Shown: positions 12,319-54,438 of the stretch, piece by piece
How the letters are laid out: each line of letters starts with the position of its first letter
Position numbering within the stretch: the stretch's first letter is position 1
Origin: an uncultured Chloroflexia bacterium
Lineage (GTDB): Bacteria > Chloroflexota > Limnocylindria > Limnocylindrales > CSP1-4
Assembly: GCA_963713795.1 (NCBI GenBank)
Contig: CAVQNC010000009.1
Location: 13,978-77,977 of the forward strand
Direction of reading: 5' to 3'
DNA: 64,000 nucleotides
Made by a program: the position numbers and the translations under genes
The notes under the pieces: generated by a model
Database searches by the model: none
Seen by the model: only the letters and a program-made list of their open reading frames with translations
What the model was told of the DNA's origin: nothing

Positions 12319-12476
12319 GGTTGGACAGTGTACCGGGCGGCGCCGTTCGGCTCGCGCGTCTGCCTCGCTGCCTATACTGGGCAGGACGCCCAGCCGCCTC
12401 CATACCACATGCGCGGACGGCAGGCGCCGCGTCGTGTGAGATCTCGACGACAACCGCCCCACGGAAGGGCCGCGAA

Positions 12477-12797
12477 ATGCCGTACTACTTCTTCTTCGGA
12501 CTCCTCGGTCTTGTCATCGGCGGGGTGCTGACCTGGTTCTTCCTGGCCGACCACCCCTTCGAGTCGCTGGAGACGCCGGGCGGGCCGGTCGATCTCCTCG
12601 AGGCCGGCCTGCTGGCCAAAGAGGTGGCGGCGGACGGCATCGTGCTCGACGAAGCGACGATCGTCCGTCTGCTGAACCTCCACGGCGCCTATGTCGACGG
12701 CAAGATCCGCGAGGCCCAGGCGGCGGCCGAGACCGAACGCATCGAGGCCGAGCGGGCGCAGGCACGCCAGGAGCTGACCGGCAAGGACCCCGGCTGA
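12477..12797 (+). CDS. Small membrane-anchored hypothetical protein (1 TM + charged helical tail)
   Basis: ATG at 12477 preceded by GGAAGG. MPYYFFFGLLGLVIGGVLTWFFL is a TM segment. No family recognised. Confidence 0.5.
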   Translation: MPYYFFFGLLGLVIGGVLTWFFLADHPFESLETPGGPVDLLEAGLLAKEVAADGIVLDEATIVRLLNLHGAYVDGKIREAQAAAETERIEAERAQARQELTGKDPG

Positions 12798-12858
12798 GGC
12801 TCCCGGTCCGGCCGGGACGGGCGATGGGGCCATCGTCGCGGCCGAACCGGTCGCCGGA

Positions 12859-13635
12859 CTAGGCCACCGTTCCCGAGTGCAGGGCCACGGAGCCGAGCGC
12901 CAGTCGCTTGAAGGTGACCTCCCGCAGGCCCACTCGCCGCATCGTCGCCGCGATCTCATCGGCCGCGGGAAAGCCGCGCAGGGAGCTCGGCAGATAGGCG
13001 TAGGCGGCGCGGCGGCGGAAGATGGCCCCGATGAGCGGCGCCGTCACTCGGAAGAGGCCGACGTAGGCCCGGCCCAGGAACCTCGGCCGCGGCACCGACA
13101 GCTCCAGGCAGACGACCCGTCCCCCACTCCGTACGGCTCGGGCCAGCTCGCGGAATCCATCTTCGAAGCTGGCCAGATTGCGCAGGCCGAAGGCGATCGC
13201 GGCGGCGTCGAACGACCCGTCCTCGAACGGCAGGGCCAGCGCGTTTCCGAGGACGAACTCGATCCCGGGCATCTCGCCGAAAGCACCCCTTGCCTGGTCC
13301 AGCATCGCCGGCGAGAGATCGACACCGACCACCCGGCCCTCCGGCCCGACCTCGGCGGCCAGCGCCGCGGTCAGCTTGCCGGTGCCGCAGGCAACGTCCA
13401 GGGCCGACCCGCCGCGCGAAAGGCGAGCGGCGCGGACGGCCGCCCGCCGCCACCGGCCGTCCATGCCCGCCGTCATGAGCGTGTTCATGCGATCGTAGAC
13501 GGGCGCGATGGAGTCGAACATCGACGTGACGCTCGGCTCGGGCACGGTATTGCCCGGCCGGCTGGCACCCCGGGCCGATGCCACTGTTGGCGCCGCGCCG
13601 GCCGCGGCCGGGCCGGGTTCCCGGCGATCGGTCAC
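12859..13635 (-). CDS. ubiE: Demethylmenaquinone/ubiquinone methyltransferase (UbiE/MenG family)
   Basis: FDSIAPVYDRMN and LDVACGTGKLT SAM motifs. The GTG start overlaps the Lrp stop (GTGA at 13632-13635). Confidence 0.85.
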   Translation of the reverse strand: MTDRREPGPAAAGAAPTVASARGASRPGNTVPEPSVTSMFDSIAPVYDRMNTLMTAGMDGRWRRAAVRAARLSRGGSALDVACGTGKLTAALAAEVGPEGRVVGVDLSPAMLDQARGAFGEMPGIEFVLGNALALPFEDGSFDAAAIAFGLRNLASFEDGFRELARAVRSGGRVVCLELSVPRPRFLGRAYVGLFRVTAPLIGAIFRRRAAYAYLPSSLRGFPAADEIAATMRRVGLREVTFKRLALGSVALHSGTVA

Positions 13636-37599: not shown

Positions 37600-39093
37600 C
37601 TAGGGCTCCTGGTTGAGTATCGCGAGTTCCTCGACGGTGGCTTCGTGCTCGTTCGCGTACTGGACCGACTTGAGGAGCCACTCCTCGCGGTTCGTCGATC
37701 TGAAGTACACGAGGATGCCGATGCCGGCGATGATCCAGACGATGTTGATCGGCAATGTCCAGAAGAAGATCCCGGTAAGGCTGGGAATGGCCAGCCAGAA
37801 GCTGAGTGCCAGGGCGCCGACGGCAAAGACCGGAATCACGAAGTGCAGGAACCAGTTGAACTCGGATCTCTTGACCCTGAACCAGTACCAGAAGACTCCG
37901 ACAGCGCCGGAACCGTAGATCACGATGACGGCCCATGTCAGGATAGTTGCCGTCCAGTAGTAGGCCTGATCGCCGCCGATCCAGAGACCCACCCCAAAGC
38001 CCCAGAAGATCGAGATGATCGTGGTCGCGATGATCGCGTTGCGGGGTACGTGGTTGTCGACCTTGGCCAGCCACTTCGGCAGGACGCCCGCTCGGGCGTA
38101 GCCGAACAGCAGCCGGTTGGTCACGATCGAGCAAGCCAGGACGCCGCCGAAGCAGCTGTTGCCGAGCACGATCAAGAGGATGATCCAGCCGGGGCCCCAG
38201 AGCCGCTGGGCCAGATCGAAGAACGCACCCACGGGCGCGCCGGCGAAGCCCTTGTCGAACTGCGCGATGCCGTAGCCGTTCACGATGCCGAACGAAGCCA
38301 CGACCATGAATAGCGAGGCGATCACGATCGAGCCTATCACCGCCCACGGAACGTACTTCCGCGGGTTGCGGCTCTCCTCGCCGACGGGCACAGCCGCCTC
38401 GAAGCCCGTGTAGGCCATGATGACCAGCGACACGCCGAAGGCGAGGCCGTTGAGCCCGTAGGCGGGATCGATCGAGGTGAAGGACTGCGTGGTGAAGCCG
38501 CCGGGGCCCGGGCTGAGCAGGCCGCTGATGCCGAAGGCCGTGAGGATGGCGATCTCGATCAGCGCCAGGGCGAGGACGAACCGGCCGGAGATCTTGATGC
38601 CGTTCCAGGTGATCCAGGTCGCGACCCCGAGCATGATCGCTGTCGTGGCCCACCACGGGAAGAAGATGTTCCAGCGGGTCTGCAGCTCGTTCTGGAGCAG
38701 GGTCCCGAAGATCGTGGCGCAGATGCTCGCCGTGATCGGGTCGTACAGCATGTACAGCCACCCGATCAGGAAACCGATGCGTGGGTGCAGCGTCTTGCTG
38801 ACGTAGGTGAAGTAGCTGGCCGCGGCCGGGAACTCACTCGCCAGCGTCGCCAGCGTAATGGCGATCGCGAGGCAGATGACGGCGCCGAAGAGATACGCGA
38901 GGGGCATGTTGTAGCCGACCTGCGCCGCGATGAAGGTTCCGGCGAGGAGCAGCGCGATGCCAGGAGCGATGTGCGTAAAGGACTGCGCGATCACTTGCGG
39001 GAACGAGAGGGCCCCTCCGTGGAGCTCCGTCTCGGCGACCATCACCCCCGTGCCACGTCCCCCAACGGGTGCCGCTTGTGTCTGGACGGCCAT
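37600..39093 (-). CDS. APC-superfamily amino acid permease (copy 1)
   Basis: 497 aa, about 12 TM. Clear paralog of the 44970-46439 gene, with shared blocks (SY(F/Y)TYVS, HPR.GF, GIK.S, GISG.LSPGPGG). Confidence 0.85.
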   Translation of the reverse strand: MAVQTQAAPVGGRGTGVMVAETELHGGALSFPQVIAQSFTHIAPGIALLLAGTFIAAQVGYNMPLAYLFGAVICLAIAITLATLASEFPAAASYFTYVSKTLHPRIGFLIGWLYMLYDPITASICATIFGTLLQNELQTRWNIFFPWWATTAIMLGVATWITWNGIKISGRFVLALALIEIAILTAFGISGLLSPGPGGFTTQSFTSIDPAYGLNGLAFGVSLVIMAYTGFEAAVPVGEESRNPRKYVPWAVIGSIVIASLFMVVASFGIVNGYGIAQFDKGFAGAPVGAFFDLAQRLWGPGWIILLIVLGNSCFGGVLACSIVTNRLLFGYARAGVLPKWLAKVDNHVPRNAIIATTIISIFWGFGVGLWIGGDQAYYWTATILTWAVIVIYGSGAVGVFWYWFRVKRSEFNWFLHFVIPVFAVGALALSFWLAIPSLTGIFFWTLPINIVWIIAGIGILVYFRSTNREEWLLKSVQYANEHEATVEELAILNQEP

Positions 39094-39413: not shown

Positions 39414-40601
39414 TCAGCGGCCCTGCTCGAGCATGGTCAGCAGCCCGCCGTGGAGCGGGCCGCGCGGCATGATCGGCCAGATGTCCACTACGCGATCGTT
39501 CTCGACAACGTGGTAGGCGTCGAAGTAGTTGACGGCGAATGGCGTGTAGCCGAGATGGAAGTCGACCACGTCGCCCACCTTGAGCGGGCAGGCGGGGTCG
39601 GCGTCGTAGGTCGCGTGCTCCTCGTCGAACCGGTATGGCTTCAAGTCCTCGAATCCGAAGATACGAGGGTATGAAGGGATGTTGCCGACGTCGGCCGCCC
39701 CAAAGGTCTTCTTTCCCAGGTTGAGGACGACCCGATCCTTGCGCCGGCTGATGACCGTCACCACCGCCGAAGTCGCCTTCTTGAAACTCGGCTCCATCAG
39801 AAAGTGGAAGTCGTCCATGGCCGCGTAGGAGCCCAGCTGGAGCTCGGTTATGCGCGGGTCCGCCCCGGTCCAGAAGGCCGTGGCCGTCCCGGCCGCCGAT
39901 AGGATCGGGCAGGCCACGCCGTTGGCCTCGAGCAGGTCCGCGACCTCGACGAAGTACCGCATCGCCGCGGCCTGCTTCTGATGCCGTTTCTCGTTGTCCA
40001 TCTCCATCGAACAATGGCCCTCGTAGCCCGAGAGCCCTTCCATGATCAGGCCAGGCAGCTCCCGGACGCGCCTGGCGACTGCCAGGGCCTCCTCGGGAGA
40101 ATCGACGCCGGCCCGGTGCATGCCTGTATCGACCTCGACCAGGACCCCGATCGTGGTGCCGGCGTCGACTGCGGCCGCCGACAGCGCCTCGGCATCCCCT
40201 GGGTCATCGACGTTTACGATGACCCGCGCCTCGCGGGCCAGGAGGGCAGCGGCGCGACGCTTCTCCGGAGTGACGAGCTCGTTGGCGATGAGGACGTCGG
40301 CGGCGCCCGCGCGAACCATGACGATCGCCTCCCAGATCGTCGCCGCGCACAGGCCGAAGGCACCGTGCTCGAGCTGCATCCGGGCGATGTGCGGGCTCTT
40401 GTGGTTCTTGACGTGGCCCCTGAGACGGGCATGAAGACCGGGCAGCCGCGACTGCATGTACTCGAGATTAGTTCGCAGGATGTTCTTGTCGACCACCAGG
40501 GCCGGCGTCACCACGTCGTACTTGCTGCCGCCGATGGCGGACCCGTACATTTCGCGAACACGCTGGTGAGCGTCGACGATGAGCGGCGCCGGCTCTCGCA
40601 T
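39414..40601 (-). CDS. D-threonine aldolase / DSD1-like PLP enzyme (alanine-racemase N-terminal fold), paralog 1
   Basis: ATG at 40601 after GGAAGGAG. TPALVVD...LRGHVKNHKSPHIA (PLP-Lys context) plus a C-terminal D-serine-dehydratase-like beta domain. The track ORF extension to 41237 is an artefact. Confidence 0.85.
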   Translation of the reverse strand: MREPAPLIVDAHQRVREMYGSAIGGSKYDVVTPALVVDKNILRTNLEYMQSRLPGLHARLRGHVKNHKSPHIARMQLEHGAFGLCAATIWEAIVMVRAGAADVLIANELVTPEKRRAAALLAREARVIVNVDDPGDAEALSAAAVDAGTTIGVLVEVDTGMHRAGVDSPEEALAVARRVRELPGLIMEGLSGYEGHCSMEMDNEKRHQKQAAAMRYFVEVADLLEANGVACPILSAAGTATAFWTGADPRITELQLGSYAAMDDFHFLMEPSFKKATSAVVTVISRRKDRVVLNLGKKTFGAADVGNIPSYPRIFGFEDLKPYRFDEEHATYDADPACPLKVGDVVDFHLGYTPFAVNYFDAYHVVENDRVVDIWPIMPRGPLHGGLLTMLEQGR

Positions 40602-40660
40602 CCGATTCACTCCTTCCGGCCTCACGGCGGGGCATCTGACGGGACGCGGGTCGCTCGGCC

Positions 40661-41863
40661 CTATTCTCCGCGCTCGAGCATGTCGAGAAGCCAGCGCGAC
40701 TCCGGGCCCCGGGGCATGACCGGCCAGACGTCGGTCACGCGGCCGTTCTCCATCACGTGGTACGCCTCGAAGTACCCGATCGCGTTCGGCGTGTAGTTGC
40801 AGCGGATCTCGAACTTGTCGCCGACCTTGACCGGATCCGACGGATCCACGAGGAAGATCGAATGCTCCTCGTCGAAACGGAAAGGCTTGAGGCCGTCCGG
40901 GGCAAGGACGCCCTGAGACGCGCCGACGGTCTTGTTGCCGGCGTCGAGGACGATCCGGTCGGATCGGCGGCTGATCACCGTGGCGAGAACGGTCACCGCC
41001 CAGCCGAACCTGGGATCCAGGCCGCGGTGGTGTCCGTCCATGGTGGCGTATGACCCGGGCTGGATCTCCGTAATACCCGGGTAGCGCGACGTGATTTCCC
41101 ACGTCCCGGTGCCCGCGGCAGTCACGATCTCGCAAGGGAATCCGTTGGCTCCGAGATGGTCGGCGACGCCCGTCAGGAAGGCCATGGCCACCTTGGCCAT
41201 GGCGCGGCGCTTGGCCTCGTCGAACTCGAGCGAGCAATGGCCTTCATAGCCGGTCAGACCGACGAGCTTGAGCCCGGGCGAAGCCGCGATCTTGCGGGCC
41301 AGGACGAGCGCCTCCTCGGCCGAAGCCACGCCGCAACGATGCATGCCTTCGTCCACGTCGATGAAGACCCCGATCGTGCTTCCGGCGGCCGTCGCGGCCC
41401 TTGAGAGTTCCTCGATCTGGCCCGAGTCGTCGACCGCGACCTTGACGTCAGCCTCGCGGGCGAGCAGAGCCAGGGCGCGAGTCTTCTCCGGGCCCACGAC
41501 TTCGTTGATCACGAAGACGTCGTTGATGCCGGCTCGAGCCATGACGATGGCCTCCCAGACCGTCGCGCAGCCGACGCCGATGGCTCCGTACTCCACCTCC
41601 AGCCGGGCGATGTGGGGGCTCTTGTGAACCTTCACGTGGGCCCGCAACGTCGTCGGAACACCCTGCATGTGCTCGGCCATGAAGCCCAGGTTTGCCTTGA
41701 GGACGCCGAGATCGAGCAGGAGGGCGGGAGTAGTCAGATCGTCGCGGCCCCGGCCCATGGCCGGGGCGTACAGGTCGCGGACCTGCTGATGGCGCGACTT
41801 GATCAAGGACGCCGGCTCCGGCATTTGCTGGCTCTGCACGGTATTCACGTCTTCCTTTTCCAT
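40661..41863 (-). CDS. D-threonine aldolase / DSD1-like PLP enzyme, paralog 2
   Basis: TPALLLD...LRAHVKVHKSPHIA. Collinear with paralog 1 throughout. Start is ATG 41863, with a later Met possible. Confidence 0.85.
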   Translation of the reverse strand: MEKEDVNTVQSQQMPEPASLIKSRHQQVRDLYAPAMGRGRDDLTTPALLLDLGVLKANLGFMAEHMQGVPTTLRAHVKVHKSPHIARLEVEYGAIGVGCATVWEAIVMARAGINDVFVINEVVGPEKTRALALLAREADVKVAVDDSGQIEELSRAATAAGSTIGVFIDVDEGMHRCGVASAEEALVLARKIAASPGLKLVGLTGYEGHCSLEFDEAKRRAMAKVAMAFLTGVADHLGANGFPCEIVTAAGTGTWEITSRYPGITEIQPGSYATMDGHHRGLDPRFGWAVTVLATVISRRSDRIVLDAGNKTVGASQGVLAPDGLKPFRFDEEHSIFLVDPSDPVKVGDKFEIRCNYTPNAIGYFEAYHVMENGRVTDVWPVMPRGPESRWLLDMLERGE

Positions 41864-41895
41864 CGACGGTACTTGACGACAGCTATCTCGGGTAT

Positions 41896-42981
41896 TTACT
41901 GAGAGCTCCCCCGGGCCGTGATGGGCCACTGGTCGACTATCTCGCCGCCGCGAGTGACCCACACGTGGTCGTGGAGGTTGAACGTGGTCCTGATCTGGCC
42001 CGGAGTGAGATCAACCCCGCTGCCCAGTGCGGGCAGCGGATCGTCCATGATCAAGGTCGTGTGCTCGTCGCTGACCATGATTTCCTTCACGGCCAACCCG
42101 ACCGGGATTGGAGCTCCGTATTCCATCCCAACGACGCGTCTGCCGACGTCCGTGACGATTCGGCCGGGGTGGCGGCTGATGACGGTCCCCCTCAGCACCG
42201 CGGCGCATCGGAACGGCAGATCCATGATCAGCAGCTCCGGCTCCATCAGGGCGTATACGCCAGCCTGGATCTCGGTGATCGTCGGGTCGGCCAGCGCTTC
42301 TCTGAGTGTCGACGTGCCGGCAGCCGAAACGACTTCCGGCGGGAAGCCGGCTTCGCGCAACGCCGAGGCCGCTTCCGAAAGGGCTCCGTAGGCGCGCCGG
42401 ATCTTGCCGCTACGCTCCTTGTCGGTTATTCGGAGACGACCTTCATAGCCCATGACCCCGCGCAGGCGGAGACCCGGCAGGCGCTCGATCTTGTGGGCCA
42501 GGGCGATGGCGTCTCGAGGCGATGCCACGCCGCAGCGGTGCAGGAGGATATCCATGTCGATCAGGACCCCGACGGTCACGCCTGCCGCGTCGGCCTCGCG
42601 CGAGAGAACCTCGACGGGTGCGGCGTCGTCGACGGCAACCGAAACCAGGGCCCGGTGGGCCAGAGCGACCAGGCGGGCGATCTTGCGCGGATCCACGACC
42701 TCGTTGGCCACGAAGACGTCCTCGAGCCCTGCGTCGACCATGGCTTCGGCCTCGCCCACCGTGGCGCAGGTGAGACCCGACACGGAAGGGCCCAGCTGGC
42801 GCCTGGCCAGCTCGGGCGTCCGATGAGTCTTGACATGGGGCCGAAGCAGCTTGCCTGTGCCGCGCAGCAAGGTGGCCATTGCGGCGACGTTGGCCTCGAA
42901 GACGCCGAGATCGACGATGAGCGCGGGGGTTGACAGAGATGGTGGGGATTTGGGTTCTATCGGCGACGATGCGGGCGTCAT
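41896..42981 (-). CDS. D-threonine aldolase / DSD1-like PLP enzyme, paralog 3 (more divergent)
   Basis: TPALIVD...LRPHVKTHRTPELA. Same two-domain layout, 361 aa. Confidence 0.8.
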   Translation of the reverse strand: MTPASSPIEPKSPPSLSTPALIVDLGVFEANVAAMATLLRGTGKLLRPHVKTHRTPELARRQLGPSVSGLTCATVGEAEAMVDAGLEDVFVANEVVDPRKIARLVALAHRALVSVAVDDAAPVEVLSREADAAGVTVGVLIDMDILLHRCGVASPRDAIALAHKIERLPGLRLRGVMGYEGRLRITDKERSGKIRRAYGALSEAASALREAGFPPEVVSAAGTSTLREALADPTITEIQAGVYALMEPELLIMDLPFRCAAVLRGTVISRHPGRIVTDVGRRVVGMEYGAPIPVGLAVKEIMVSDEHTTLIMDDPLPALGSGVDLTPGQIRTTFNLHDHVWVTRGGEIVDQWPITARGSSQ

Positions 42982-42994
42982 GACCGTGCCTCTC

Positions 42995-44444
42995 TCAGCC
43001 CGCGGCCAGACGCGAACGAACGTCCGCGTACAGGGCGCCTCTGTGGGTATCGGGCTCGAAGCGCCTGTTCACCGTCACGAGCTCGGCGACGGCTTCGGAC
43101 ACTGAACCGTAGACGCCGGCGCCGACGCCGGCCAGGACCGCGGCCCCGAAAGTGCCGGGTTCGCTCTGGGCCACGACCTCGATCGGGACCCCGCACACGT
43201 CGGCCATGAGCTGGAGCCACCAAGCGTTCCTGGAGCCGCCGCCGGTCGCCCGAACGAGGTTCGTCTCGACGCCTCGTTTCTGAAGCCGCTCCAGGCTCAA
43301 CGAGAAGTTGCAGGCAATGGCCTCCAGGAGAGCCCGGACGATGTCGACCTGCGTAGAAGCCAGGGTCACGCCGGAGAATGTGCCGCCGAAACCGGGCGCG
43401 GCCGAGACATGAGGAAGAGGCGTAAAGGCCGCGTCGGCGAACACGTGGCCGGGCCCGGGGCCCGCGCCGGCCAGACCCTCTTCCAGGTCCGGAATCGAGA
43501 GATGAGCCAGCTCTCGGAACCAGTCGATGACGCTCATCCCATTCGGGTCGGTCGCCAGGACGCCGAACCCGGTCGGACCCGGGTGCGGGAAGACGTTGAA
43601 CCCGTCGTGAACCAGCTCCACCGGCCAGCCGGGCAGAACCGGCACGTTGTAGGAATGCCACGTCCCGCAGGCCAGGGCGATGACCCCCGGGTCGACGGCC
43701 CCGGACCCGACCGAGGCGGCGTAGGTGTCGTAGGCGCCGGTCACGACGAGTGTGTCCAAGGGGAGGTCGAACTCCATGGCCGCTTCTCGCAGGATCGTCG
43801 CGATGGGCGTCCCATTGGGCTGGACCTCAGGCAGCCACTTCGGATCGATGCCGGTCTCGGCGATGCGTTCCGGCGACCAGTCGCCCGTGGCGACGTCGTA
43901 GGTCGCCCACGTGCCGGCGTCACTCCAATCGACGACCGGCCGGCCGGTCAACAGGAGCGAGTAGAACTCGTGCCAGTTCATGAACCAGCGGGCCCTGGCG
44001 GCGACTCCGGGGTTCGTCCGCCGCCACCACAGAGCCCGGTTGATCGGATCCATGCGCCGCGGCACATGACCTGTCAGGCGGAACCAGTCCTCCGGCGACC
44101 GGCGCCCGGCCGTCTCGGCGGCCACGTCGTCTCCCCTGATGTCGGGCGTCATCAAGCAGACGCCGAGCGGGGTGCCGTCCTCGGATACCGGAAACACCTC
44201 ACGGCCGGACGAGCTGAACGAGATGGCGACCGGCGGGTCGTTCTTGACGCGCATGTCGGCAGTCACCGCCCCCAGGGCGGCCCTGAACGCATCCCGCGAA
44301 TTCGAAGACGTTCACTTCCCAATGACCGGGCTCGGGCCGGTAACCCGGCACCGCCCGGGCCGCCTGCGCCAGCATCGTGCCGTTCGTCGCGTATGCGACG
44401 ACCTTGATCGCGCTCGTACCCAGGTCTATCCCGATGAGGCTCAT
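42995..44444 (-). pseudogene. FGGY-family carbohydrate kinase (xylulokinase-like) with a frameshift near 44288-44303
   Basis: The N-terminal 49 aa (MSLIGIDLGTSAIKVVAY...GHWEVNVFEF) are in the 44199-44444 ORF. The rest (RDAFRAALGAVTADM...AISFSSSGRE...) is in the 42995-44266 frame. Deleting one base in GAATTCGCGGGATG (minus strand) restores FEFRDAFRAALGAV. Confidence 0.8.
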
Positions 44445-44504: not shown

Positions 44505-44774
44505 TCACTCGAGACCGGAGATGTCCTCGCCGGGCTGGCCGATGATGCCGATCGTGGAGAAGATCGGCGTCTCGGTCTCGTTCCCCACCAGGATCTTCAG
44601 CAGGACCCCCGCGGCGGGCGCCTCGACGTCGAGCGAGATCTTCTCGGTCTCGATCTGGACGATCGATTCGCCCTTGTCGACCGTGTCACCGACGGCCTTG
44701 AGCCATTGCTTGACGGTACCTGTCTCAAGATCCTGGCCGGCCTGCGGCATGACCACCTTCACAGCCATGTTCAA
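44505..44774 (-). CDS. Free-standing lipoyl/biotinyl-attachment domain protein (89 aa)
   Basis: VVMPQAGQDLETGTVKQWLKAVGDTVDKGESIVQIETEKISLDVEAPAAGVL matches the E2 lipoyl-domain pattern, with the target Lys in ETEK. No catalytic or subunit-binding domain follows. Confidence 0.85.
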   Translation of the reverse strand: MNMAVKVVMPQAGQDLETGTVKQWLKAVGDTVDKGESIVQIETEKISLDVEAPAAGVLLKILVGNETETPIFSTIGIIGQPGEDISGLE

Positions 44775-44969: not shown

Positions 44970-46439
44970 CTAGGCCTCGCTGATGGCTTCGCCCGCGTTG
45001 AGGAGCCACTCCTCCTTCCCTCGTGCGCGCATCCAGAAGAGGATGGCGATGCCCAGGACGAACCAGATGACATCGATGATCGGCGCGAGGTTATAGGGCG
45101 ACCCCGGCGCCGAGCCGTACCCGGCCGGCGGGAAGAACGTGAACCAGATGGCCAGGATCAGGACTATCGACGAGAAGAGCGGGAAGACCAGGTGGAGGAG
45201 CCAGTTGAACTCCGCCCGGTGCTCGCCCCGGTAGAACATGAAGACGCCGAGGTTGGCCATCAGGTACACGAAGGTAACGGCGATGACCAGGATCAGGCCA
45301 TCGATGAGGTAGAACGACACGTCCGGACCGTAGATGAACCCGACCGTAAGCGCGGACACGAGCGAGAGCGCCATCTGCATCAGGATCGCGTTGGTCGGCG
45401 ACTTGTACTTCGGGTCGACCTTGGCGAGGATCTTCGGGAACGAGCCGCTGCGGGCCATGCCGTACCACATGCGGCTGCTCACGTTGGCAGTGGCGAGGCA
45501 GACCGCGAACACGCTGTTGATGAAGGCGACGAGCAGGACCCACCAGAGCGCGCCCCAGAGGTGATGGGCGAGCACGAGGGCCGGCAGCTCGGAGCTGGCG
45601 GTAACGGCCGAGACGTCGTTGACGCCGAAGCCAGTGATCAACCCGTAGAAGACGATTACGAGGAACACCCCGATCAGGACGATCGAGAGGATCACCGAGA
45701 GCGGGACGTTGCGCTTGGGATTGGTAGTTTCCTCGGCGAGGGGCGCGGCGCCCTCCCAGCCCGTCAACGCCTGGACGTTGAAGATGATGGCCAGGGCGAA
45801 CCCGGCCGCGCTGCCGATGTTGGCGGGATTGAACGGAGCGAGCGAAACACCGCCCGGGCCGGGGCTCAGGATGCCGGAGATGCCGAGGGCGAACACGATC
45901 AGCATCTCGAGGCCGCCGGTGATCACCATGAACTCGGCCGAGAGCTTGATCCCGCGATGCTGCACGTAGGCGACGAACGGCGCACCGACCACGATGCACA
46001 CCCACCACAGCCACGGCACGTTGATGTTCCAGTTGTCCTTCAGCTCACCCTGCAGGATGAAACCGAGGAACCCGTAGATCGCGCCGCCGCAGAGCGGCGA
46101 GTAGAAGATGTACATCCAGGCCGTCATGAAGCCGGCCCGTGGATGGATGGACCGGCTCACGTATGTGTAGTACGAGCCTGCGGACGGCAGGTACTTCGCG
46201 AACTGGATGAGGGTGCTGCCCAGCATCAACACGAGCAGGAAGCCCAGGAAGTAGGCCAGAGGCGCAGTTATGCCGGCGTACCCGACGACCACGGCCGTGT
46301 AGAAGAAGGCGGCGATGGCGGGCGAGATGTGGGTGATCGCCTGCATCGTGGCGCCGAGGAGCCCGATTGCGTCCTTTTCGAGATCCCTGTGTAGAGCGCC
46401 ACTACTCGGGGCCCCCGACTCAGTGGCAACGTTGGTCAT
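44970..46439 (-). CDS. APC-superfamily amino acid permease (copy 2)
   Basis: 489 aa, polytopic, paralog of the 37600-39093 gene. Confidence 0.85.
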   Translation of the reverse strand: MTNVATESGAPSSGALHRDLEKDAIGLLGATMQAITHISPAIAAFFYTAVVVGYAGITAPLAYFLGFLLVLMLGSTLIQFAKYLPSAGSYYTYVSRSIHPRAGFMTAWMYIFYSPLCGGAIYGFLGFILQGELKDNWNINVPWLWWVCIVVGAPFVAYVQHRGIKLSAEFMVITGGLEMLIVFALGISGILSPGPGGVSLAPFNPANIGSAAGFALAIIFNVQALTGWEGAAPLAEETTNPKRNVPLSVILSIVLIGVFLVIVFYGLITGFGVNDVSAVTASSELPALVLAHHLWGALWWVLLVAFINSVFAVCLATANVSSRMWYGMARSGSFPKILAKVDPKYKSPTNAILMQMALSLVSALTVGFIYGPDVSFYLIDGLILVIAVTFVYLMANLGVFMFYRGEHRAEFNWLLHLVFPLFSSIVLILAIWFTFFPPAGYGSAPGSPYNLAPIIDVIWFVLGIAILFWMRARGKEEWLLNAGEAISEA

Positions 46440-46810: not shown

Positions 46811-47818
46811 GTGCGGGAGCGGGATGCGGCCGCAAGCGCCTGGCTGGACGGCCGACCGATCGACCGGTATCATTCTGTTGTGTTTCAGATTCGCGAACGC
46901 CATCGCGCGCGTGCCGTCGACGATCTCGTCCCCGTGCTCGCGCGCCAGTTCCTGATCGCCCCCGAGCCACCCTCGCGGCTCGCGACGGTGCGGGAGCTGG
47001 CTCGCCAGCACGGCTCCAGTCTCTCGTCGATCCACTTCGCGATCAGCCGCCTGGTCGACGCGGGCGCGGTCGACATAGAGATGCGGGGTCGGCTCGGAGC
47101 CTTCCTCGTGGGACGCTCGGTCGGGCGGTTGTGGGCCCTCGCGGAAAACGGCAGGCCGCTCGTCGTGGCTCTCCCGCTCGCTTCCTCGCTTCGCTACGAG
47201 GGACTCGCGACGGCGCTGAAGCAGACCCTGTCCCGCGCCGACCTCGAAGTCTTCCTCATCTTCGTCCGGGGATCCCGTAAGCGCCTCCAGGCGGTCCGGG
47301 AGGGGCGATGCCACCTGGCCGCGATGTCGAGCTTCGCTGCCTCGGAACTGTGCGGCCCGGAAGACTCAGTTCTGATCGAGCTCCCTGCCCTCACTTACAA
47401 CACCGGGCACCGCGTCTTCTACACCGCCGCCGCCGCGGACCAGGATCCGCGGACCGTCATCATCGACCGCGATTCGGCGGATCAGCAGCTCCTGTCCACG
47501 CTCGAATTCAACGGGGCGAACGTCCGGCTCGTCGGGGCCATGGGCGTCCAGATAGCCCGGCTGCTGGCCGAGGGTCATGGCGACGCCGCCGTGTGGACTA
47601 TCGACGAGATGCGAGTCCGGTGGCCCGACGGGGTGCTCGACCGGCCGCTATCCCAATCCGTCCGCGACCAGGTCGGCGATCGAGACACTCGCGCGGCGCT
47701 TGTGGGCCAGGCCTCCGACGCGGCTGTGCTTGGCGCAATCACGGCCTCCATCGACCCTGAAGAGGTGGAGCGGATCCAGCTCGACGTGATGAACCTTCGG
47801 GTCGTACCCGAATACTGA
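46811..47818 (+). CDS. YhfZ-like regulator (GntR-type wHTH + periplasmic-binding-protein-like C-terminal domain)
   Basis: ATVRELARQHGSSLSSIHFAISRLVDAGAVDIEMRGRLGAFLV parallels my recollection of E. coli YhfZ (...LGAIELETRGRNGTFI). A long non-HTH C-terminal domain follows. The start could be the GTG at 46880. Confidence 0.6.
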   Translation: MRERDAAASAWLDGRPIDRYHSVVFQIRERHRARAVDDLVPVLARQFLIAPEPPSRLATVRELARQHGSSLSSIHFAISRLVDAGAVDIEMRGRLGAFLVGRSVGRLWALAENGRPLVVALPLASSLRYEGLATALKQTLSRADLEVFLIFVRGSRKRLQAVREGRCHLAAMSSFAASELCGPEDSVLIELPALTYNTGHRVFYTAAAADQDPRTVIIDRDSADQQLLSTLEFNGANVRLVGAMGVQIARLLAEGHGDAAVWTIDEMRVRWPDGVLDRPLSQSVRDQVGDRDTRAALVGQASDAAVLGAITASIDPEEVERIQLDVMNLRVVPEY

Positions 47819-47851: not shown

Positions 47852-48814
47852 ATGAGCCAGATGGGCGCGAACCTGCTCCTGTCGATGTACGAGACGGCGA
47901 CAACCATCCGCAAGTTCGAACAGAAGGCCATCGAGCAATACCGCGTGGGCAACATCCGTGGGTACTTTCATCCGTACCTGGGCGAGGAAGGGATAGCCGT
48001 CGGCGCGATCGCGGCCCTCGAGCCGGATGACTACATCGTCAGCACCCATCGCGGCCACGGACACGCGATTGCGAAGGGGCTCGAACCCAGGCAGATGATG
48101 GCCGAGCTGTTCGGCAAGGAGACCGGGTACTGCCGCGGACGGGGCGGATCGATGCACGTTGCGAGCCGATCGGTCCGAAGCCTTGGAGCGAACGGGATCG
48201 TCGGCGGCGGGCTGGCCATCGCCGACGGTGCCGCGATGGCGATCAAGCAGCGGGGCGAGTCGCAGGTCGTCGTAGCGTTCTGCAGCGACGGCTCATCGGC
48301 CAACGGCATCTGGCACGAATCGCTCAACCTGGCAGCCATCTGGGATCTGCCGGTCATCTTCGTCCTCGAGAACAACCAGTACGCCGTCTCGACCCCGATT
48401 CGGGACTCCGCTCGCGTAGACCATCTTTCCGAGCGGGCTGCCGGCTACGGTATGCCCGGCCTGACCGTGGACGGCAACGACGCCGCCATCGTCTACGGTG
48501 CGATGCAGGAACCCCTGCGCCGGGCACGGGCAGGCGAAGGTCCGACTCTGCTCGAGTGCATGACCTATCGCCACGGCGGCCACCATGTCAACGACCCGGG
48601 GCTCTACCTGCCCGCCGACGAACTGAAGCGCTGGAAGGAGCACGACCCCTTGATCGTCCTGCGCCAGCGCCTGGCTCTGGCCGGGGTCGAGGAAGCCTCC
48701 GTCACGGCCGTGGACGAGCGCGTCGAACGACTCATGGACGAGGCGGTCGCGTTTGCGGAGGCCAGCCCCAATCCGTCGCTCGACGAGTTCTGCGCCGAGG
48801 TCGCGATGCTGTAG
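47852..48814 (+). CDS. Thiamine-diphosphate-dependent dehydrogenase E1 component, alpha subunit (PdhA/AcoA-like)
   Basis: STHRGHGHAIAKG, GRGGSMH, GDGSSANG...NLAAIWDLPVIFVLENNQYAVST TPP motif. AAGGAGAA RBS. Confidence 0.9.
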   Translation: MSQMGANLLLSMYETATTIRKFEQKAIEQYRVGNIRGYFHPYLGEEGIAVGAIAALEPDDYIVSTHRGHGHAIAKGLEPRQMMAELFGKETGYCRGRGGSMHVASRSVRSLGANGIVGGGLAIADGAAMAIKQRGESQVVVAFCSDGSSANGIWHESLNLAAIWDLPVIFVLENNQYAVSTPIRDSARVDHLSERAAGYGMPGLTVDGNDAAIVYGAMQEPLRRARAGEGPTLLECMTYRHGGHHVNDPGLYLPADELKRWKEHDPLIVLRQRLALAGVEEASVTAVDERVERLMDEAVAFAEASPNPSLDEFCAEVAML

Positions 48815-48896: not shown

Positions 48897-49883
48897 ATGA
48901 AGTACCGCGAGGCCCTCCGGGCCGCCCTCAACGAAGAGATGGAACGGGACGAGTCGGTGTTCTGCATCGGCGAGGGGATCGGCGAACGCGGGGGCTCGTA
49001 CAAGGTCACCGAGGGGCTCCTTGCTGAGTTCGGCCCCGGCCGAGTCATCGACACGCCCTTGAGCGAGGCTGGTTTCGTCGGCATTGGCGTCGGAGCGGCG
49101 ATCGCGGGCCGGCGCCCGGTCGTCGAGATCCTGTTCATCGACTTCCTGCTGCAGACGATGGACCAGGTGGTCAACCAGGCCGCGAAATACCGCTTCATGT
49201 CGGGCGGCGAGGGCCGAGTCCCCCTGGTGATCCGCACGCAGGGAGGGACCGGCAATTCGCTGGCCGGCCAGCATTCTCAGAGCCTGGAGGCCCTCTACTA
49301 TCACGTGCCCGGGCTGAAGGTCGTAATGCCGTCGACGCCCGCCGATGCCAAAGGGTTGCTGAAGTCGGCCATTCGCGACGATGACCCGGTCATATTCATC
49401 GAGCACAAGCTGCTCTACATGACCGACGGCGAAGTTCCCGAGGCGGATTACTCCATCCCGCTCGGCAAGGCCGACATCAAGCGTGCCGGCACCGACCTCA
49501 CCCTGGTGGCCTGGTCGCACATGGTCCTCAAGAGCCTGCAGGCGGCCGAGGAACTTGCCAAAGAGGGCATCTCCGTCGAGGTCGTCGACCTGCGGACGCT
49601 CGTGCCCATGGATGTCCCCTGCCTGCTCGACTCGGTGAGGCGGACGGGGCGGCTCGTCATCGCCCAGGAGGCCATCAAGCGCGGCGGCGTTGGCAGCGAT
49701 GTCGCCGCCATCGTCGCCGAGCAGGCGTTCGACGCGCTTCGCGCCCCGATCGTTCGGGTAGCGGGGATGAACACCACGATCCCATTCAACCTGGCCCTCG
49801 AAAAGGCTGCCGTCCCGCAGGTCGCCGACATCGTGGCCGGCGTCAGGTCGGTGGTCGGGGCAGGCACAGCGAGCCGCGCGTGA
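48897..49883 (+). CDS. E1 component, beta subunit (PdhB/AcoB-like)
   Basis: MKYREALRAALNEEMERDESVFCIGEGIG, DTPLSEAGFVG, and a transketolase C-terminal-like domain. Confidence 0.9.
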   Translation: MKYREALRAALNEEMERDESVFCIGEGIGERGGSYKVTEGLLAEFGPGRVIDTPLSEAGFVGIGVGAAIAGRRPVVEILFIDFLLQTMDQVVNQAAKYRFMSGGEGRVPLVIRTQGGTGNSLAGQHSQSLEALYYHVPGLKVVMPSTPADAKGLLKSAIRDDDPVIFIEHKLLYMTDGEVPEADYSIPLGKADIKRAGTDLTLVAWSHMVLKSLQAAEELAKEGISVEVVDLRTLVPMDVPCLLDSVRRTGRLVIAQEAIKRGGVGSDVAAIVAEQAFDALRAPIVRVAGMNTTIPFNLALEKAAVPQVADIVAGVRSVVGAGTASRA

Positions 49884-51064
49884 GCGGGTCGGAACTGGTC
49901 GCGACTTACCTGGCGGAGCTGCCGGCCGAAGGGACGGAGGCAGCCGCCGAGGCCTTCGCGACCGGGCAGAGCATCGGGACATGGGTGCCGGTCCCTGGCA
50001 TCAGCGAGGAAATGCGGCGCCTCCACGGGGCCAGGGTCGTCGAGGTGACCCGCGATCGTCCGGCCGAAGAACTCGGCGGCGAGGCGAACGGCGACCTCTG
50101 GGTACTGAGGGTGGCCTTCCCAACGCCCAACTTCGGGGCTCAGTTCCCGATGATGCTGACCACCCTCGTCGGCAACGACCCGTCGACGTCTTTGACCGTC
50201 CGGCTGGTCGACATAGACCTGCCCGAAGCGTTCCGGGCCGAATTCCCCGGTCCGCAGATGGGGGTGGACGGCTGGCGCAGCCTGACCGGCGTGTGGGACC
50301 GGCCCTTGCTCCTGAACATGATCAAACCGTGCACGGGGTATTCGCCGAGCGCAGGGGCGGACCTGCTCGAGCAGCCGGCGCGGGGCGGCGCGGACCTGAT
50401 AAAGGATGACGAGCTCCTGGGCGACGCCCCGTTCAACCGCGTCGCCGAGCGCTCTCGCATATACCGCGAGCGCCTGGAACGAGTCGCCGAAGAGACAGGT
50501 CACCGGGCCCGGTACATCTGCAACGTGACCGACCGAGCGAGCCGGCTCATCGACACCGCCCGGGCGGCGGTCGACGGCGGCGCGGACGCGCTGATGGTGA
50601 ATGCCCTTGCCGTCGGGTTGGACCCGTTTCAGGCGCTCGTGGAAAGCAAGCCTGGAGTGCCCATCCTGGTCCACACCGCCACATCCGACGTCATGACGGG
50701 CGCAACCAGCTCGGGAATCGGACAGGCGCTGATCTTCGGCAAGTTCCTGCGTCTTGCCGGAGCGGATGCCGTCTTCACCACGACGCCCTTCGCCCGCCGC
50801 CCGCCCTCCGGACTCGTATATGAGAAAACTCTTCAGTGGATGAGGGAGCCGAGCGGGACTCACAAACCGACCATGCCGATGCTCGCCGGAGGCGTGACCG
50901 GCTCGATGATCGGATCCCTGGTCCGGCAGTCCGGCGTCGACGTCATGCTGGGGATCGGCGGCGGGATCCAGGGCCATCCGCGGGGCGCCGAAGCAGGAGC
51001 TCGAGCTGTTCGGGCCGCGATCGACGAAGCGATGCTCTCGATGGAAGCCGGCGCGCATGGCTGA
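49880..51064 (+). CDS. RuBisCO large-subunit-like protein (form IV RLP, MtnW/YkrW-like architecture)
   Basis: ATGQSIGTW, FPMMLTTLVGN, RPLLLNMIKPCTG, GGADLIKDDE, PILVHTA, GKFLRLAGAD, GIGGGIQGHPRG are collinear with RuBisCO/RLP blocks. The GTG start overlaps the E1-beta stop (GTGA). The stop overlaps the E2 start (ATGGCTGA). Confidence 0.88.
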   Translation: MSGSELVATYLAELPAEGTEAAAEAFATGQSIGTWVPVPGISEEMRRLHGARVVEVTRDRPAEELGGEANGDLWVLRVAFPTPNFGAQFPMMLTTLVGNDPSTSLTVRLVDIDLPEAFRAEFPGPQMGVDGWRSLTGVWDRPLLLNMIKPCTGYSPSAGADLLEQPARGGADLIKDDELLGDAPFNRVAERSRIYRERLERVAEETGHRARYICNVTDRASRLIDTARAAVDGGADALMVNALAVGLDPFQALVESKPGVPILVHTATSDVMTGATSSGIGQALIFGKFLRLAGADAVFTTTPFARRPPSGLVYEKTLQWMREPSGTHKPTMPMLAGGVTGSMIGSLVRQSGVDVMLGIGGGIQGHPRGAEAGARAVRAAIDEAMLSMEAGAHG

Positions 51065-51788
51065 ACAGCGATCCGGCCCGCCCGGTGCCGCGGCTCCTCG
51101 CCGCCTCGAGCAATCGAAGATGCGGCTCGCCGTCGGGCGGCAGATGGCGACGAGCAAGCAGACGGTGCCCCATTTCTACGTCAGCACCGAGATCGTGATG
51201 GATTCCGTGCTGGATCTGGCGCGCCGCATGTCCGTCGCACCGGCCGCACCGCGTGTCTCGGTCACCGCCTGCCTGGTCAGGGCACTCACGCAAGCCCTTG
51301 TCGCGATGCCCGCCTTGAATGCGACCTTGACGCCGGACGGGTACGTTGCCGGGGAGAGCGTCAATGTCGGCATCGCGATCGCGCTGGAGGGCGGTCTCCT
51401 GGCGCCGGCGATGCTCGACTGTCAGGACATGGACTTGATCCAGACGGCGGCAGCGCTCGACGACCTCGTCGCTCGTGCGCGCAACGGCCGTCTCCGGGCT
51501 CCGGAGATGGGCTCCTCGACGTTCACGCTTTCGAACCTCGGCATGTTCGACGTCACCACCTTCTCGGCCATCGTGATTCCGCCGCAGGTGGCGATTCTCG
51601 CGGTCGGCCGAGCCGTTCCCCGCCCGATCGTGGTCGAAGGAGCAGTCGAGATCCGATCGGTCATGACGGCCACTCTGTCGGCCGACCACAGACTCATCGA
51701 CGGGGCCGACGCAGCTCGGTTCCTGGGGGAGTTCAAGTCTCGGCTGAACGATCTGGCGCGCTCGGAAGAGATGTTTCGGACGTCCTGA
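51057..51788 (+). CDS. 2-oxoacid dehydrogenase acyltransferase (E2), catalytic domain only
   Basis: 243 aa that begin directly at the catalytic-domain entry (KMRLAVGRQMATSKQTVPHFYVSTE). The DHRLIDG active-site motif is present. There is no lipoyl or peripheral-subunit-binding domain. Confidence 0.88.
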   Translation: MAEQRSGPPGAAAPRRLEQSKMRLAVGRQMATSKQTVPHFYVSTEIVMDSVLDLARRMSVAPAAPRVSVTACLVRALTQALVAMPALNATLTPDGYVAGESVNVGIAIALEGGLLAPAMLDCQDMDLIQTAAALDDLVARARNGRLRAPEMGSSTFTLSNLGMFDVTTFSAIVIPPQVAILAVGRAVPRPIVVEGAVEIRSVMTATLSADHRLIDGADAARFLGEFKSRLNDLARSEEMFRTS

Positions 51789-52105
51789 GAGGAGGTCGAG
51801 ACGGGCCCTTCGCATTGATCGCGATCCACCTGCGCAGATACGTGCAATGTCATGCAACATCTTGACGCGGCGGCGTACCGGTACCTATCCTCTGTTCTCG
51901 GACGCCGATAGACCGCTTCGCCGATCCGGTCGAGATGGCCGGGCCGATCCTCTACGTCTGCTTCGAAGACGCCACGTTCCAGACGGGCGGCCTCAAGGTC
52001 GATGACGGCGGTGATTCGGTCAGGCTGCCGGTACGCGGCGCGCTGGACGAGCCGTTGGTCCCGGGCAGAGTCCGCTGGTCCAGGCCAGCCCCAGGAGGCC
52101 AAGTC

Positions 52106-53062
52106 ATGGCAATCGCTCAAGGCCCGAAGGTCACTCTCGCCGAGTTCGACCGCATCTTCGAATCGGTCAAGAACTGGGGCAAGTGGGGTCCCGACGACCA
52201 GCTCGGAACGCTGAACTACATCACCCGCGACAAGGTCCGGCAGGCCGCCGGTCTGGTGAAGTCGGGTCGCCGGGTCTCGATGGAGATTCCCATCAACAAG
52301 GCGGCGGGACCGGACAACCCGAACCAGGCCTTCCACTACGTCACCCAGAGCCACGACATCGACATCGGATCCAGCGGCCTCACCTTCGCTCTCGACTTCC
52401 TGGGCATGGCCTGCCACGGCGACTGCCACACTCACATCGACGCGCTCTGCCACATCGCCTACAAGGGCCAGACGTACAACGGCAAACCCGCCCTCGAGGT
52501 GATGACCAGCAAGGGAGCCACGTCCCTCGACATAACCAGCTACGGCAACGGTCTGGTGGGCCGCGGCGTCCTCCTGGACATCCCGCGGCTGCGGGGCGTC
52601 AAATGGCTCGAGCCGGGAGAGGCGGTCCGCCGAGAGGAGCTGGAGGCGTGCGAGAAGAGCATCGGCCTCGAACTCGGCGAGGGCGACATCCTCGTCTACC
52701 GGACCGGCCACCACCGGCGCCGGCTCGAACTCGGAGCGTGGAGCAACGACCCGCCGCCGGCCGGTGAAGGCAAGGCCGGCCTGCACGTCGACACCATCCC
52801 CTGGATGCACGAACGCAGGATCGCCGCCTTCCTGCCGGACGGCGACGGCGAAGCTGTACCGAGCGTCGTCGAGGGTATGACCTATCCCATCCATCCGCTC
52901 CAGATCACGGCGATGGGCATGCTCGCCTCCGACAGCCTCCAGTTCGAGGACCTGGCTCGGGCCTGCGAGGAGGAGGGCCGCTGGGAGTTCATGGTCGTGG
53001 GCCTGCCCCTGCGCCTCCCGGGCGGCACAGGCTCGCCCTGGAACCCGATCGCCATCTTCTGA
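52106..53062 (+). CDS. Cyclase-family protein (kynurenine-formamidase-like fold)
   Basis: ATG at 52106 after AGGAGG. WG.DDQLGTLNYIT, CHGDCHTHIDALCH (His-rich metal motif), GVLLDIPR, GDILVYRTG. Confidence 0.75.
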   Translation: MAIAQGPKVTLAEFDRIFESVKNWGKWGPDDQLGTLNYITRDKVRQAAGLVKSGRRVSMEIPINKAAGPDNPNQAFHYVTQSHDIDIGSSGLTFALDFLGMACHGDCHTHIDALCHIAYKGQTYNGKPALEVMTSKGATSLDITSYGNGLVGRGVLLDIPRLRGVKWLEPGEAVRREELEACEKSIGLELGEGDILVYRTGHHRRRLELGAWSNDPPPAGEGKAGLHVDTIPWMHERRIAAFLPDGDGEAVPSVVEGMTYPIHPLQITAMGMLASDSLQFEDLARACEEEGRWEFMVVGLPLRLPGGTGSPWNPIAIF

Positions 53063-53319
53063 TGGAGGCAGCGCGGGAGTCCCGCCCGAAGCGACGGAGG
53101 AGGACGCCTGACACGAACACGGCTTGATTCCGGGTCTTGCCGAGAGCCGACTGGTACCGCGCCGGAGAGTCGGTCGAGGAGCGGCCCGCGACGGTCGATG
53201 AAATCGAAGCCCTGAAGGGCGAGTGTCTACCCGCCGCCGGGCGACGGGTAGACACAGAAAGTCCAACGCTCGAGCACGTTGCCAGCGACCCGCTCGAGCC
53301 CTTCCGCGGAGGTGTAACC

Positions 53320-54438
53320 ATGCCTGAGCTGTTCGGACGCTCCTACTCTCGGTCGGATCTCCTGCGTCACGTCGGCAGGCTCGAGCAGGTGGCCGGCGTC
53401 CGGCTGGTCACCCTGGACGACAGCCTCGGCCGTGGCGTGCGGGTGATCGAGTTCCGGACCGGCTCGGGCTTCTCCTTCGACGTCGTCGTCGATCGCTGCT
53501 TCGACATCGGCCGGTGCGAGATCGGAGGCCGCCCCCTCAACTGGCAGTCGAACGCGGGGATCGTGGGGCCGTGGTACTACGAAAACGACGAATGGGGCTG
53601 GTTCCGAGCCTGGGGCGGCGGCATGGTCGTGACCTGCGGCCTCGATCACACCCTCCTGTCGGGTGAGGACGACGCCAGCGACTTTCACCAGACTCATATC
53701 TTCAAGACGGTCTCGTACGGCCTCCACGGTCGCGTGGGCGGGCTGCCGGCCCGGCTCGTCGGCTACGGCGAGCGCTGGGACGGCGACGAGTGCGTCCTCT
53801 GGGCCGAGGGCGAAGTGCTCCAGTCGGCGATCTTCGGCGAGCATCTGCTGCTGCGCCGCCGGATCGAGGCACGCGTAGGAGAGTCGCACTTCACGATCCA
53901 CGACGAGGTCGAGAACGTCGGCCACAGCCGCGTCTCGCACATGCTGCTCTACCACTGCAACGCGGGATTCCCGGTGGTGGACGATGGGTCCAGGCTCCTC
54001 GTCCCCTCGCTCAAGACGACCACGGACTACGACGTGACGCCCGAGCTGATGGCCAGCTACCGGACGCTCACCGGACCGATCAAGGACTACAGCGAGAAGT
54101 GCTTCGAGCACGAACTGGTGGCCGAGAAGGACGGCAAGGTTCCGGTCGCGGTCGTGAACGAGAAGCTCGGATTGGGCGTCTACCAGGTCTTCCGGATCGG
54201 TCAGCTGCCTCACCACACGGTCTGGCGGATGATGGGCGAAGACACCTACGCCCTGGCCATGGAGCCGGGCACCAACCGCGACGCCGGCCGCTGGGACGCC
54301 AAGGAGCGCGGCGAGCTGCTCCACATGGAACCCGGCGAGATCCGCCCGTACGACCTGGAGATCGGCGCCCTGGTGGGCGACAAGGCGATAGCAGGATTCG
54401 AGAGCCGTGTAGAGCGGCTCGCACACGCACAGGGGTAG
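53320..54438 (+). CDS. Aldose-1-epimerase-fold protein (DUF4432-like)
   Basis: ATG at 53320 after GGAGGTG. GRGVRVIEFRTGSGF.F.V..DR..DI, GLHGR, LLYHCN.GFP blocks as in the DUF4432/mutarotase-like superfamily. Confidence 0.65.
   Translation: MPELFGRSYSRSDLLRHVGRLEQVAGVRLVTLDDSLGRGVRVIEFRTGSGFSFDVVVDRCFDIGRCEIGGRPLNWQSNAGIVGPWYYENDEWGWFRAWGGGMVVTCGLDHTLLSGEDDASDFHQTHIFKTVSYGLHGRVGGLPARLVGYGERWDGDECVLWAEGEVLQSAIFGEHLLLRRRIEARVGESHFTIHDEVENVGHSRVSHMLLYHCNAGFPVVDDGSRLLVPSLKTTTDYDVTPELMASYRTLTGPIKDYSEKCFEHELVAEKDGKVPVAVVNEKLGLGVYQVFRIGQLPHHTVWRMMGEDTYALAMEPGTNRDAGRWDAKERGELLHMEPGEIRPYDLEIGALVGDKAIAGFESRVERLAHAQG

Follow-up and report, generated by a model that had tools for sequence, protein, structure and literature searches.

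We analysed a 64-kb stretch of DNA (hereafter the window; positions 13978-77977 of contig C9) from a 3.7-Mb soil Chloroflexota metagenome-assembled genome (MAG) in 38 contigs, labelled G000 among the genomes sampled here, and found a free lipoyl protein (Lip) and a dihydrolipoamide acyltransferase (E2) consisting of the catalytic domain alone (E2cat), encoded by separate genes. The two genes lie 6.3 kb apart on opposite strands, in the two divergent arms of a cluster that also encodes an E1 alpha/beta pair and a RuBisCO-like protein (RLP). We consider it probable, at roughly 70%, that this is a genuinely split E2, in which Lip would act as a free carrier specific to its E1, unloaded by E2cat or by a housekeeping E2 and reoxidised by a dihydrolipoamide dehydrogenase (E3) encoded at a distance. 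The two genes at the centre of this proposal are:

44505..44768, minus strand: Lip, 87-aa lipoyl-domain protein (ATG at 44768, stop at 44505-44507; Pfam Biotin_lipoyl)
51057..51788, plus strand: E2cat, 243-aa dihydrolipoamide acyltransferase, catalytic domain alone (Pfam 2-oxoacid_dh)

Genes in the window were chosen by third-position GC and then scanned with Pfam. For comparison, 151 genomes of the order (Candidatus Limnocylindrales) were searched with the window E2cat, a tree of 239 E2 catalytic domains was built with FastTree, and the Lip family was collected as 455 clusters at 90% identity, with per-member statistics taken from the 120 listed. Twelve loci with lipoyl matches in short frames were retrieved for reading of their neighbourhoods, and Lip was modelled with AlphaFold2 from 35 homologues.

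The catalytic-only character of the E2, which a preliminary description of this DNA had pointed out, was confirmed. Its only Pfam match is to 2-oxoacid_dh (227 bits), spanning profile positions 5-228 of 232. The ATG overlaps the stop of the RLP gene by 8 nt, and the open frame upstream of it runs for only 49 codons, overlaps the RLP gene and has no similarity to a lipoyl domain or to a peripheral-subunit-binding domain (PSBD); a profile search of the genome likewise gave no match to the PSBD family (E3_binding, PF02817) on contig C9. The motifs FTLSNLGMF and LSADHRLIDGA align to FTISNLGMF and LSCDHRVVDGA of human E2p, and the active-site Ser and His/Asp (DHRxxDG) motifs that they represent are intact. 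Homology to solved cores, which in canonical E2s assemble as 24-mers or 60-mers through a C-terminal knob, stops at residue 230 of the 243, and the C-terminal end, NDLARSEEMFRTS, is different. Among the 120 best database homologues, all are 212-263 aa long and carry PF00198 alone.

Lip is also a single-domain protein: Biotin_lipoyl is its sole Pfam domain (56.8 bits; cut-off 22.1), and this lipoyl domain, at window 44574-44759, is the only one on contig C9. A separate lipoyl gene about 6.3 kb away on the opposite strand had been described before, as an 89-aa protein; the arrangement stands and the length does not. The listed open reading frame (ORF) of 89 aa begins at a TTG two codons upstream of ATG 44768, and since, of the 120 homologues listed, 118 have a length of exactly 87 aa, the start is almost certainly the ATG. 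In the motif IETEK, K43 (codon 44640-44642, minus strand) is the predicted lipoyl-lysine and the residue on which we infer lipoylation to occur. Listed members are 77-100% identical to the query, and 119 of 120 keep K43. The ETEK motif, noted earlier as a departure from the usual form, is present in 118 of these 120; it is the norm of the family, which rules it out as a meaningful anomaly, and other free lipoyl proteins of the order read ETEK or ETDK. One Lip cluster of seven member sequences (P0118) has Asn in place of the lipoyl-lysine (IETENV), which may reflect an error in sequencing or a variant that cannot be lipoylated.

The AlphaFold2 model of Lip (pLDDT 92) is a flattened beta-barrel that matches the lipoyl domain of human pyruvate dehydrogenase (PDH; 3crk_C) with a TM-score of 0.83 and a root-mean-square deviation of 1.1 Å, and K43 sits in the turn between strands 35-40 and 45-49. 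Every NCBIfam match of Lip is to an N-terminal lipoyl domain of an E2 or an E1 beta, the best being the N-terminus of AcoC, the acetoin-dehydrogenase E2 (69 bits; the cut-off of 307 applies to the whole protein). The score against Pfam GCV_H (16.9 bits) falls below the cut-off of 22.2, placing Lip outside the GcvH family. The nearest lipoyl domains outside the order are the N-termini of fused E2s, and Lip is 47-49% identical to the E2 found beside E1 alpha and beta genes in the Bacillus subtilis group.

The split recurs throughout the order. Every E2cat match of at least 49% identity in the 151 genomes (55 of 55) lies in a short frame of 218-293 aa and is catalytic-only; two of them have longer stop-to-stop frames, of which the one checked is high-GC read-through in a frame different from that of Lip. 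Matches of at most 42% identity, by comparison, all lie in frames of 379-960 aa, namely a 379-aa frame on contig C2 of the present genome, which carries a PSBD and a catalytic domain, and otherwise full-length E2s. A catalytic-only E2 was found directly beside Lip, within ~350 nt, in 11 of the 12 retrieved loci, and the Lip/E2cat junctions read in other genomes show a stop and a change of frame, with no PSBD between the two.

In the E2 tree, the window E2cat groups with its orthologues in genomes G038 and G068 (support 100). This trio nests in an exclusively catalytic-only clade of 25 (support 76), which sits within a clade of 30 (support 99), its closest companions there being four full-length E2s and one more catalytic-only protein; the nearest paralogues of the window E2cat are E2cats of the type encoded on contig C3 of the same genome. 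This position indicates that the split is older than the recruitment of this E2cat into the RLP cluster. The comparison further indicates that the split E2 is inherited and conserved across the whole order, and neither chance nor assembly error comes near to accounting for the pattern. Among the best 150 E2cat matches in a library of 1.8 billion representatives, ~30 have catalytic-only length, and judged by the homologues collected, the split design is unique neither to the order nor to one phylum. A Spirochaetia MAG (OY782041.1; locus L063, 10001-10941) encodes E1 alpha, E1 beta, a free 87-aa Lip and, in another frame, E2cat; its Lip is 55% identical to that of the window and has the motif VETEK.

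Read across neighbourhoods, Lip genes track E1 genes one-to-one, and E2cat is the part that is shared or absent. This goes against the earlier suggestion of one carrier shared by several of the cluster's enzymes. Elsewhere in the genome, another split-E2 locus (C3:238000-244100; L001 6305-12044) encodes, in order, E1 alpha (360 aa), E1 beta (345 aa), Lip, a fused E1 alpha-beta (737 aa), Lip and E2cat (242 aa). One E2cat is thus shared there by two E1s and two Lips, and the same layout was found in G022. In G060, E1 alpha and beta and Lip are present with no E2cat within 10 kb.

Clusters orthologous to that of the window fall into two types. Those of type A keep the window layout, with RLP and then E2cat after E1 beta; they comprise the window, G038, G068/L061 and L137, with L056 assigned by layout, and their RLPs are 72-80% identical to the window RLP. 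In L056 (2359-2613), just 85 residues within an open frame of 144 codons match E2cat, so that the E2cat gene looks truncated, and Lip is intact. At another locus (L138; GCA_017881915.1, 2822-2932), a 36-aa 2-oxoacid_dh remnant follows RLP and TIM, again with Lip intact. Type-B clusters (L002, L003, L057 and L139, with shorter contigs consistent) keep E1 alpha and beta (~80% identical), Lip (78-84%), the sugar kinase and the pyridoxal phosphate (PLP) enzymes described below; they have no E2cat within 10 kb, and their RLP is a different one (~38% identical), placed after the PLP genes. The type-B genomes G136 and G150 each hold one E2 catalytic domain, which is part of a full-length E2. Overall, E2cat orthologues (at least 64% identity) form ~38 clusters, against the 455 of Lip, and most orthologous gene clusters retain E1 and Lip with no E2cat. 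In the 6-contig assembly of G150 (L042/L043; C2:563-603k of that assembly), the whole cluster including Lip is full of frame breaks, reflecting either long-read indel noise or a decaying cluster.

The remaining lipoyl-dependent machinery of the present genome is encoded elsewhere. It has two full-length E2s (C3:386k and C10:187k) and two catalytic-only E2s, that of the window and one at C3:243k. PSBD matches are confined to E2s on C2, C3 and C10, and the piece on C2 (PSBD and catalytic domain in the 379-aa frame) has no lipoyl match. This piece (C2:3994-4899) has the same PSBD score and a nearly equal catalytic-domain score as the full E2 at C3:385831-386736, and may represent assembly redundancy, strain heterogeneity or contamination. 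A profile search for E3 (Pyr_redox_dim) found matches on C10 and C20 only and none in the 64-kb window, as the preliminary description had it, or on contig C9. The E3 at C10:185.5k adjoins a full-length E2 and LipA, and a gene of LplA/LipB type lies at C3:444k. The dissociated, GcvH-like logic proposed earlier is well supported by the conserved stand-alone Lip, the E2cat clade and the distant E3 and lipoylation genes.

The split extends to a sister family of the order, whose sampled genomes are 0.7-1.4 Mb in size. In three of these (G001, G007 and G015; L051-L053), the sole 2-oxoacid_dh domain is a catalytic-only gene beside a free 80-aa Lip. No E1 of the E1_dh type was found in the three genomes, and a model of AceE-type E1p matches all of them, at ~1280 bits in G001 and G007 and as two fragments on separate contigs in G015. 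No PSBD was seen on reading the Lip and E2cat genes of the family, in keeping with the count of one 2-oxoacid_dh domain per genome, although no dedicated PSBD search was made. On these matches, the only pyruvate dehydrogenase of the three genomes would run on a split E2 without a PSBD. Given that a dedicated E2 is missing from most relatives of the window cluster, which do have E1 and Lip, and that the split pair is the only E2 of the small genomes, we tentatively suggest that the free lipoyl proteins of the order might be E1-specific adaptors, through which any pathway E1 plugs into whichever E2 catalytic domain and E3 are available, untethered; we hold this broader idea to be somewhat less likely than not true. 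If it is true, the central pyruvate dehydrogenase of an entire bacterial lineage works in a dissociated, H-protein-like manner and not as the textbook mega-complex.

We propose the following mechanism for the window system. K43 of Lip would be lipoylated by the LplA/LipB-type enzyme of the genome together with LipA, making Lip a free, diffusible carrier of acyl groups and electrons. The heterotetramer-type E1 alpha/beta of the cluster would recognise Lip specifically and reductively acylate it with an acyl unit derived from a 2-oxo or ketose-type intermediate of the pathway. E2cat would then move the acyl group from Lip to CoA; in clusters without E2cat, the catalytic domain of a housekeeping full-length E2 would unload Lip in trans. 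Finally, dihydrolipoyl-Lip would be reoxidised by the single Lpd (E3), whose gene adjoins the housekeeping E2 gene and lipA on a different contig. Because neither Lip nor E2cat carries a PSBD, a stable E1-E2-E3 mega-complex would not be expected, and Lip would shuttle like the H protein of glycine cleavage. The specificity of E1 for Lip, the identity of the unloading enzyme, the nature of the substrate and the absence of a complex are all put forward here as predictions. E1 enzymes discriminate between lipoyl domains, while E2 and E3 accept lipoyl domains more loosely. An E1-specific carrier fits this role of E1 as discriminator, and it also fits the use of lipoyl groups in trans by OdhA, to which we return below.

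The other genes of the cluster are:

47852..48814, plus strand: E1 alpha, thiamine diphosphate-binding (Pfam E1_dh, 275.8 bits)
48897..49883, plus strand: E1 beta (Pfam Transket_pyr and Transketolase_C)
49880..51064, plus strand: RLP, between E1 beta and E2cat (Pfam RuBisCO_large, 121 bits)
46811..47818, plus strand: YhfZ-like regulator heading the right arm (Pfam YhfZ_C, 139.7 bits, and HTH_41)
44970..46439, minus strand: amino-acid permease upstream of Lip in the left arm (Pfam AA_permease, 130 bits)
42995..44444, minus strand: FGGY sugar kinase directly downstream of Lip (Pfam FGGY_N and FGGY_C)
39414..42981, minus strand: three tandem PLP enzymes of D-Ser-dehydratase / D-Thr-aldolase type, downstream of FGGY (Pfam Ala_racemase_N and D-ser_dehydrat)
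37600-39093, minus strand: second permease of the left arm
51935-53062, plus strand: cyclase-family gene downstream of E2cat (Pfam Cyclase, 58.5 bits)
53137-54438, plus strand: DUF4432 gene downstream of E2cat (Pfam DUF4432, 308 bits)

E1 alpha scores 337 bits against the NCBIfam model PDH_E1_alph_y, under its cut-off, and is 45-46% identical to the E1 alpha that adjoins the AcoC-like E2 of Bacillus. The longest ORF for E1 beta opens at TTG 48753, within E1 alpha; homology starts at residue 49 of this long ORF, orthologues are 328 aa long, and ATG 48897 is preceded by AAGGAAG. The start is therefore probably ATG 48897, and the longer ORF from 48753 probably goes unused. The best NCBIfam matches of E1 beta are PDH E1 models, of which it passes a subfamily model only and not an equivalog. 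RLP scores 270 bits against the NCBIfam model for DK-MTP-1-P (2,3-diketo-5-methylthiopentyl-1-phosphate) enolase, whose cut-off is 409, and the PLP enzymes score 198 bits against a BhcC-like model, also under the cut-off. The cyclase-family and DUF4432 genes are both kept in orthologous clusters.

The gene order Lip then FGGY is kept in nearly all orthologous loci. In the present assembly the kinase is frameshifted after ~49 codons (window 44190-44444, minus strand), with MSLIGIDLGTS...NVFEF in one frame and RDAFRAALGAV... onward in another, which is either a true pseudogene or an indel error. At the type-A locus L137, the gene caller gives an 850-aa FGGY kinase joined to the first PLP enzyme (10322-12874), either a real fusion or a lost stop. 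Relatives of the cluster also hold a class II aldolase, a TIM and a HAD phosphatase. On account of the permeases, the PLP enzymes of the hydroxy-D-amino-acid kind, the sugar kinase, the enolase-type RLP and the aldolase, TIM and HAD genes of relatives, the surroundings suggest, speculatively, an amino-sugar-acid or ketose-phosphate route.

We weighed three other explanations against the split E2 with an E1-specific carrier. One is that a normal multi-domain E2 was broken by assembly or annotation and that the 87-aa ORF is a stray fragment. The MAG has an estimated contamination of ~5%, and the window does carry at least one frameshift, in the FGGY kinase. E2cat, however, begins inside the stop of the preceding gene with no PSBD or lipoyl coding potential upstream, and the same gene structures recur at 67-84% identity in independent assemblies (including L137, G038 and G068/L061), besides the uniform length of Lip in 118 of 120 homologues and the catalytic-only state of all 55 close E2cat relatives. 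A frameshift or misassembly of a normal E2 is ruled out by the junction sequence and the independent assemblies, and we give the artefact explanation practically no credence. Another would make the 87-aa protein the biotin carrier of a carboxylase, or else give it a role in lipoyl relay or regulation with no connection to E1 and E2. The Biotin_lipoyl family does span both biotinyl and lipoyl domains, and a fold search with the Lip model also returns biotin carriers, ranked lower. Yet sequence matches in the PDB reach 1.4e-25 for E2 lipoyl domains and only ~5e-4 for biotin carriers, Lip lacks the (A/V)MKM motif and reads ETEK(I/V), and its best NCBIfam matches are E2 N-termini. Moreover, Lip accompanies the E1 alpha/beta cluster in nearly all loci with no carboxylase nearby, and the biotin-type domains of the genome are on C4, adjoining a BirA-like match. 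The biotin-carrier version is ruled out by the PDB and NCBIfam matches, and the explanation as a whole is very improbable.

More serious, though still unlikely in our view, is the possibility that Lip works with E1 and the housekeeping E2 and E3 only, and that E2cat is an acyltransferase that uses acyl-CoA to modify some small molecule formed in the RLP pathway. Most orthologous clusters keep Lip and E1 with no E2cat, and E2cat always accompanies the RLP type of 62-80% identity and not Lip, decaying independently of the latter in L056 and L138. The E2cat fold is also like that of chloramphenicol acetyltransferase, and stand-alone E2-like acyltransferases exist in tetronate biosynthesis. Against this, in all the adjacent pairs inspected, the E2cat relative from outside this cluster had a free Lip gene as its direct neighbour, which suggests that the ancestral partner of E2cat was a free lipoyl protein; its catalytic motifs are those of lipoamide acyltransferases, and it is located in the E1 operon. 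Several points nevertheless weigh against a split E2 served by Lip. Its support is sequence-based throughout. With Lip and E2cat 6.3 kb apart on opposite arms, their pairing in the window rests on comparison with other loci, and the loss of E2cat from most related clusters could mean that it is not the partner of Lip. Neither protein has a PSBD through which E1 and E3 could dock. The FGGY frameshift may indicate that the cluster is partly inactive, or be an indel error of the assembly. Finally, the all-catalytic-only clade has moderate FastTree support (76), and some short metagenomic proteins in the E2 tree may be fragments.

Automatic annotation gives Lip (87 aa) and E2cat (243 aa) alike the name "pyruvate dehydrogenase E2", and these labels hide the split architecture. 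Full-text searches covering part of the literature turned up no account of an E2 split in nature or of the proteins described here, and nothing relevant in the searchable part that pairs an RLP with lipoyl, acetoin dehydrogenase or FGGY. A conserved split system would show that tether and scaffold are dispensable, possibly even in central metabolism. It would also suggest a modular rule by which each E1 has its own free Lip and draws on a common E2cat and E3, a rule that could account for the recruitment of new catabolic E1s, and it would offer a minimal, easily reconstituted means to ask which component reads lipoyl-domain identity.

A covalently tethered lipoyl swinging arm, together with an E2 core that docks E1 and E3, is the textbook basis of active-site coupling in 2-oxoacid dehydrogenase complexes. 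The canonical E2s of 2-oxoacid and acetoin dehydrogenases (Bacillus AcoC, PDH E2p) share with the present system the lipoyl fold with its Lys at the hairpin tip, the DHRxxDG and Ser motifs and the neighbouring E1 alpha/beta genes. In contrast to their single chain of one to three N-terminal lipoyl domains, PSBD and catalytic core, the lipoyl and catalytic genes here are separate and on opposite strands, neither Lip nor E2cat has a PSBD, and E3 is unlinked. GcvH offers the likeness of a small free lipoylated protein that shuttles between enzymes and is reoxidised by dihydrolipoamide dehydrogenase, with lipoylation of Lip being predicted; it belongs to another family, whereas Lip is an E2-type lipoyl domain whose proposed partners are E1 and E2cat in place of the P and T proteins. 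The LbpA lipoate-binding proteins of sulfur oxidation are, like GcvH, small free lipoylated shuttles. In actinobacterial OdhA, the E2 catalytic domain uses the lipoyl groups of E2p in trans (PMC10415282). As in OdhA/Kgd, an E2 catalytic domain that carries no lipoyl domain would here depend on the lipoyl-lysine of another polypeptide, but there E1o and the catalytic domain form one fused chain and a full E2p serves as donor, whereas here a free 243-aa E2cat and a free 87-aa donor would work with an E1 of the alpha/beta type. In the QncN/QncL/QncM and SclQ1-4 systems, a PDH/transketolase-like E1 and a lipoyl-E2 turn ketose phosphates into a glycolyl unit (PMC6335953). These E1/E2-type enzymes in a sugar-phosphate setting are a possible model for the E1 of the window, although their lipoyl domain is fused to the acyltransferase domain and their acceptor is an acyl carrier protein (ACP), while the present cluster has neither an ACP nor a non-ribosomal peptide synthetase.

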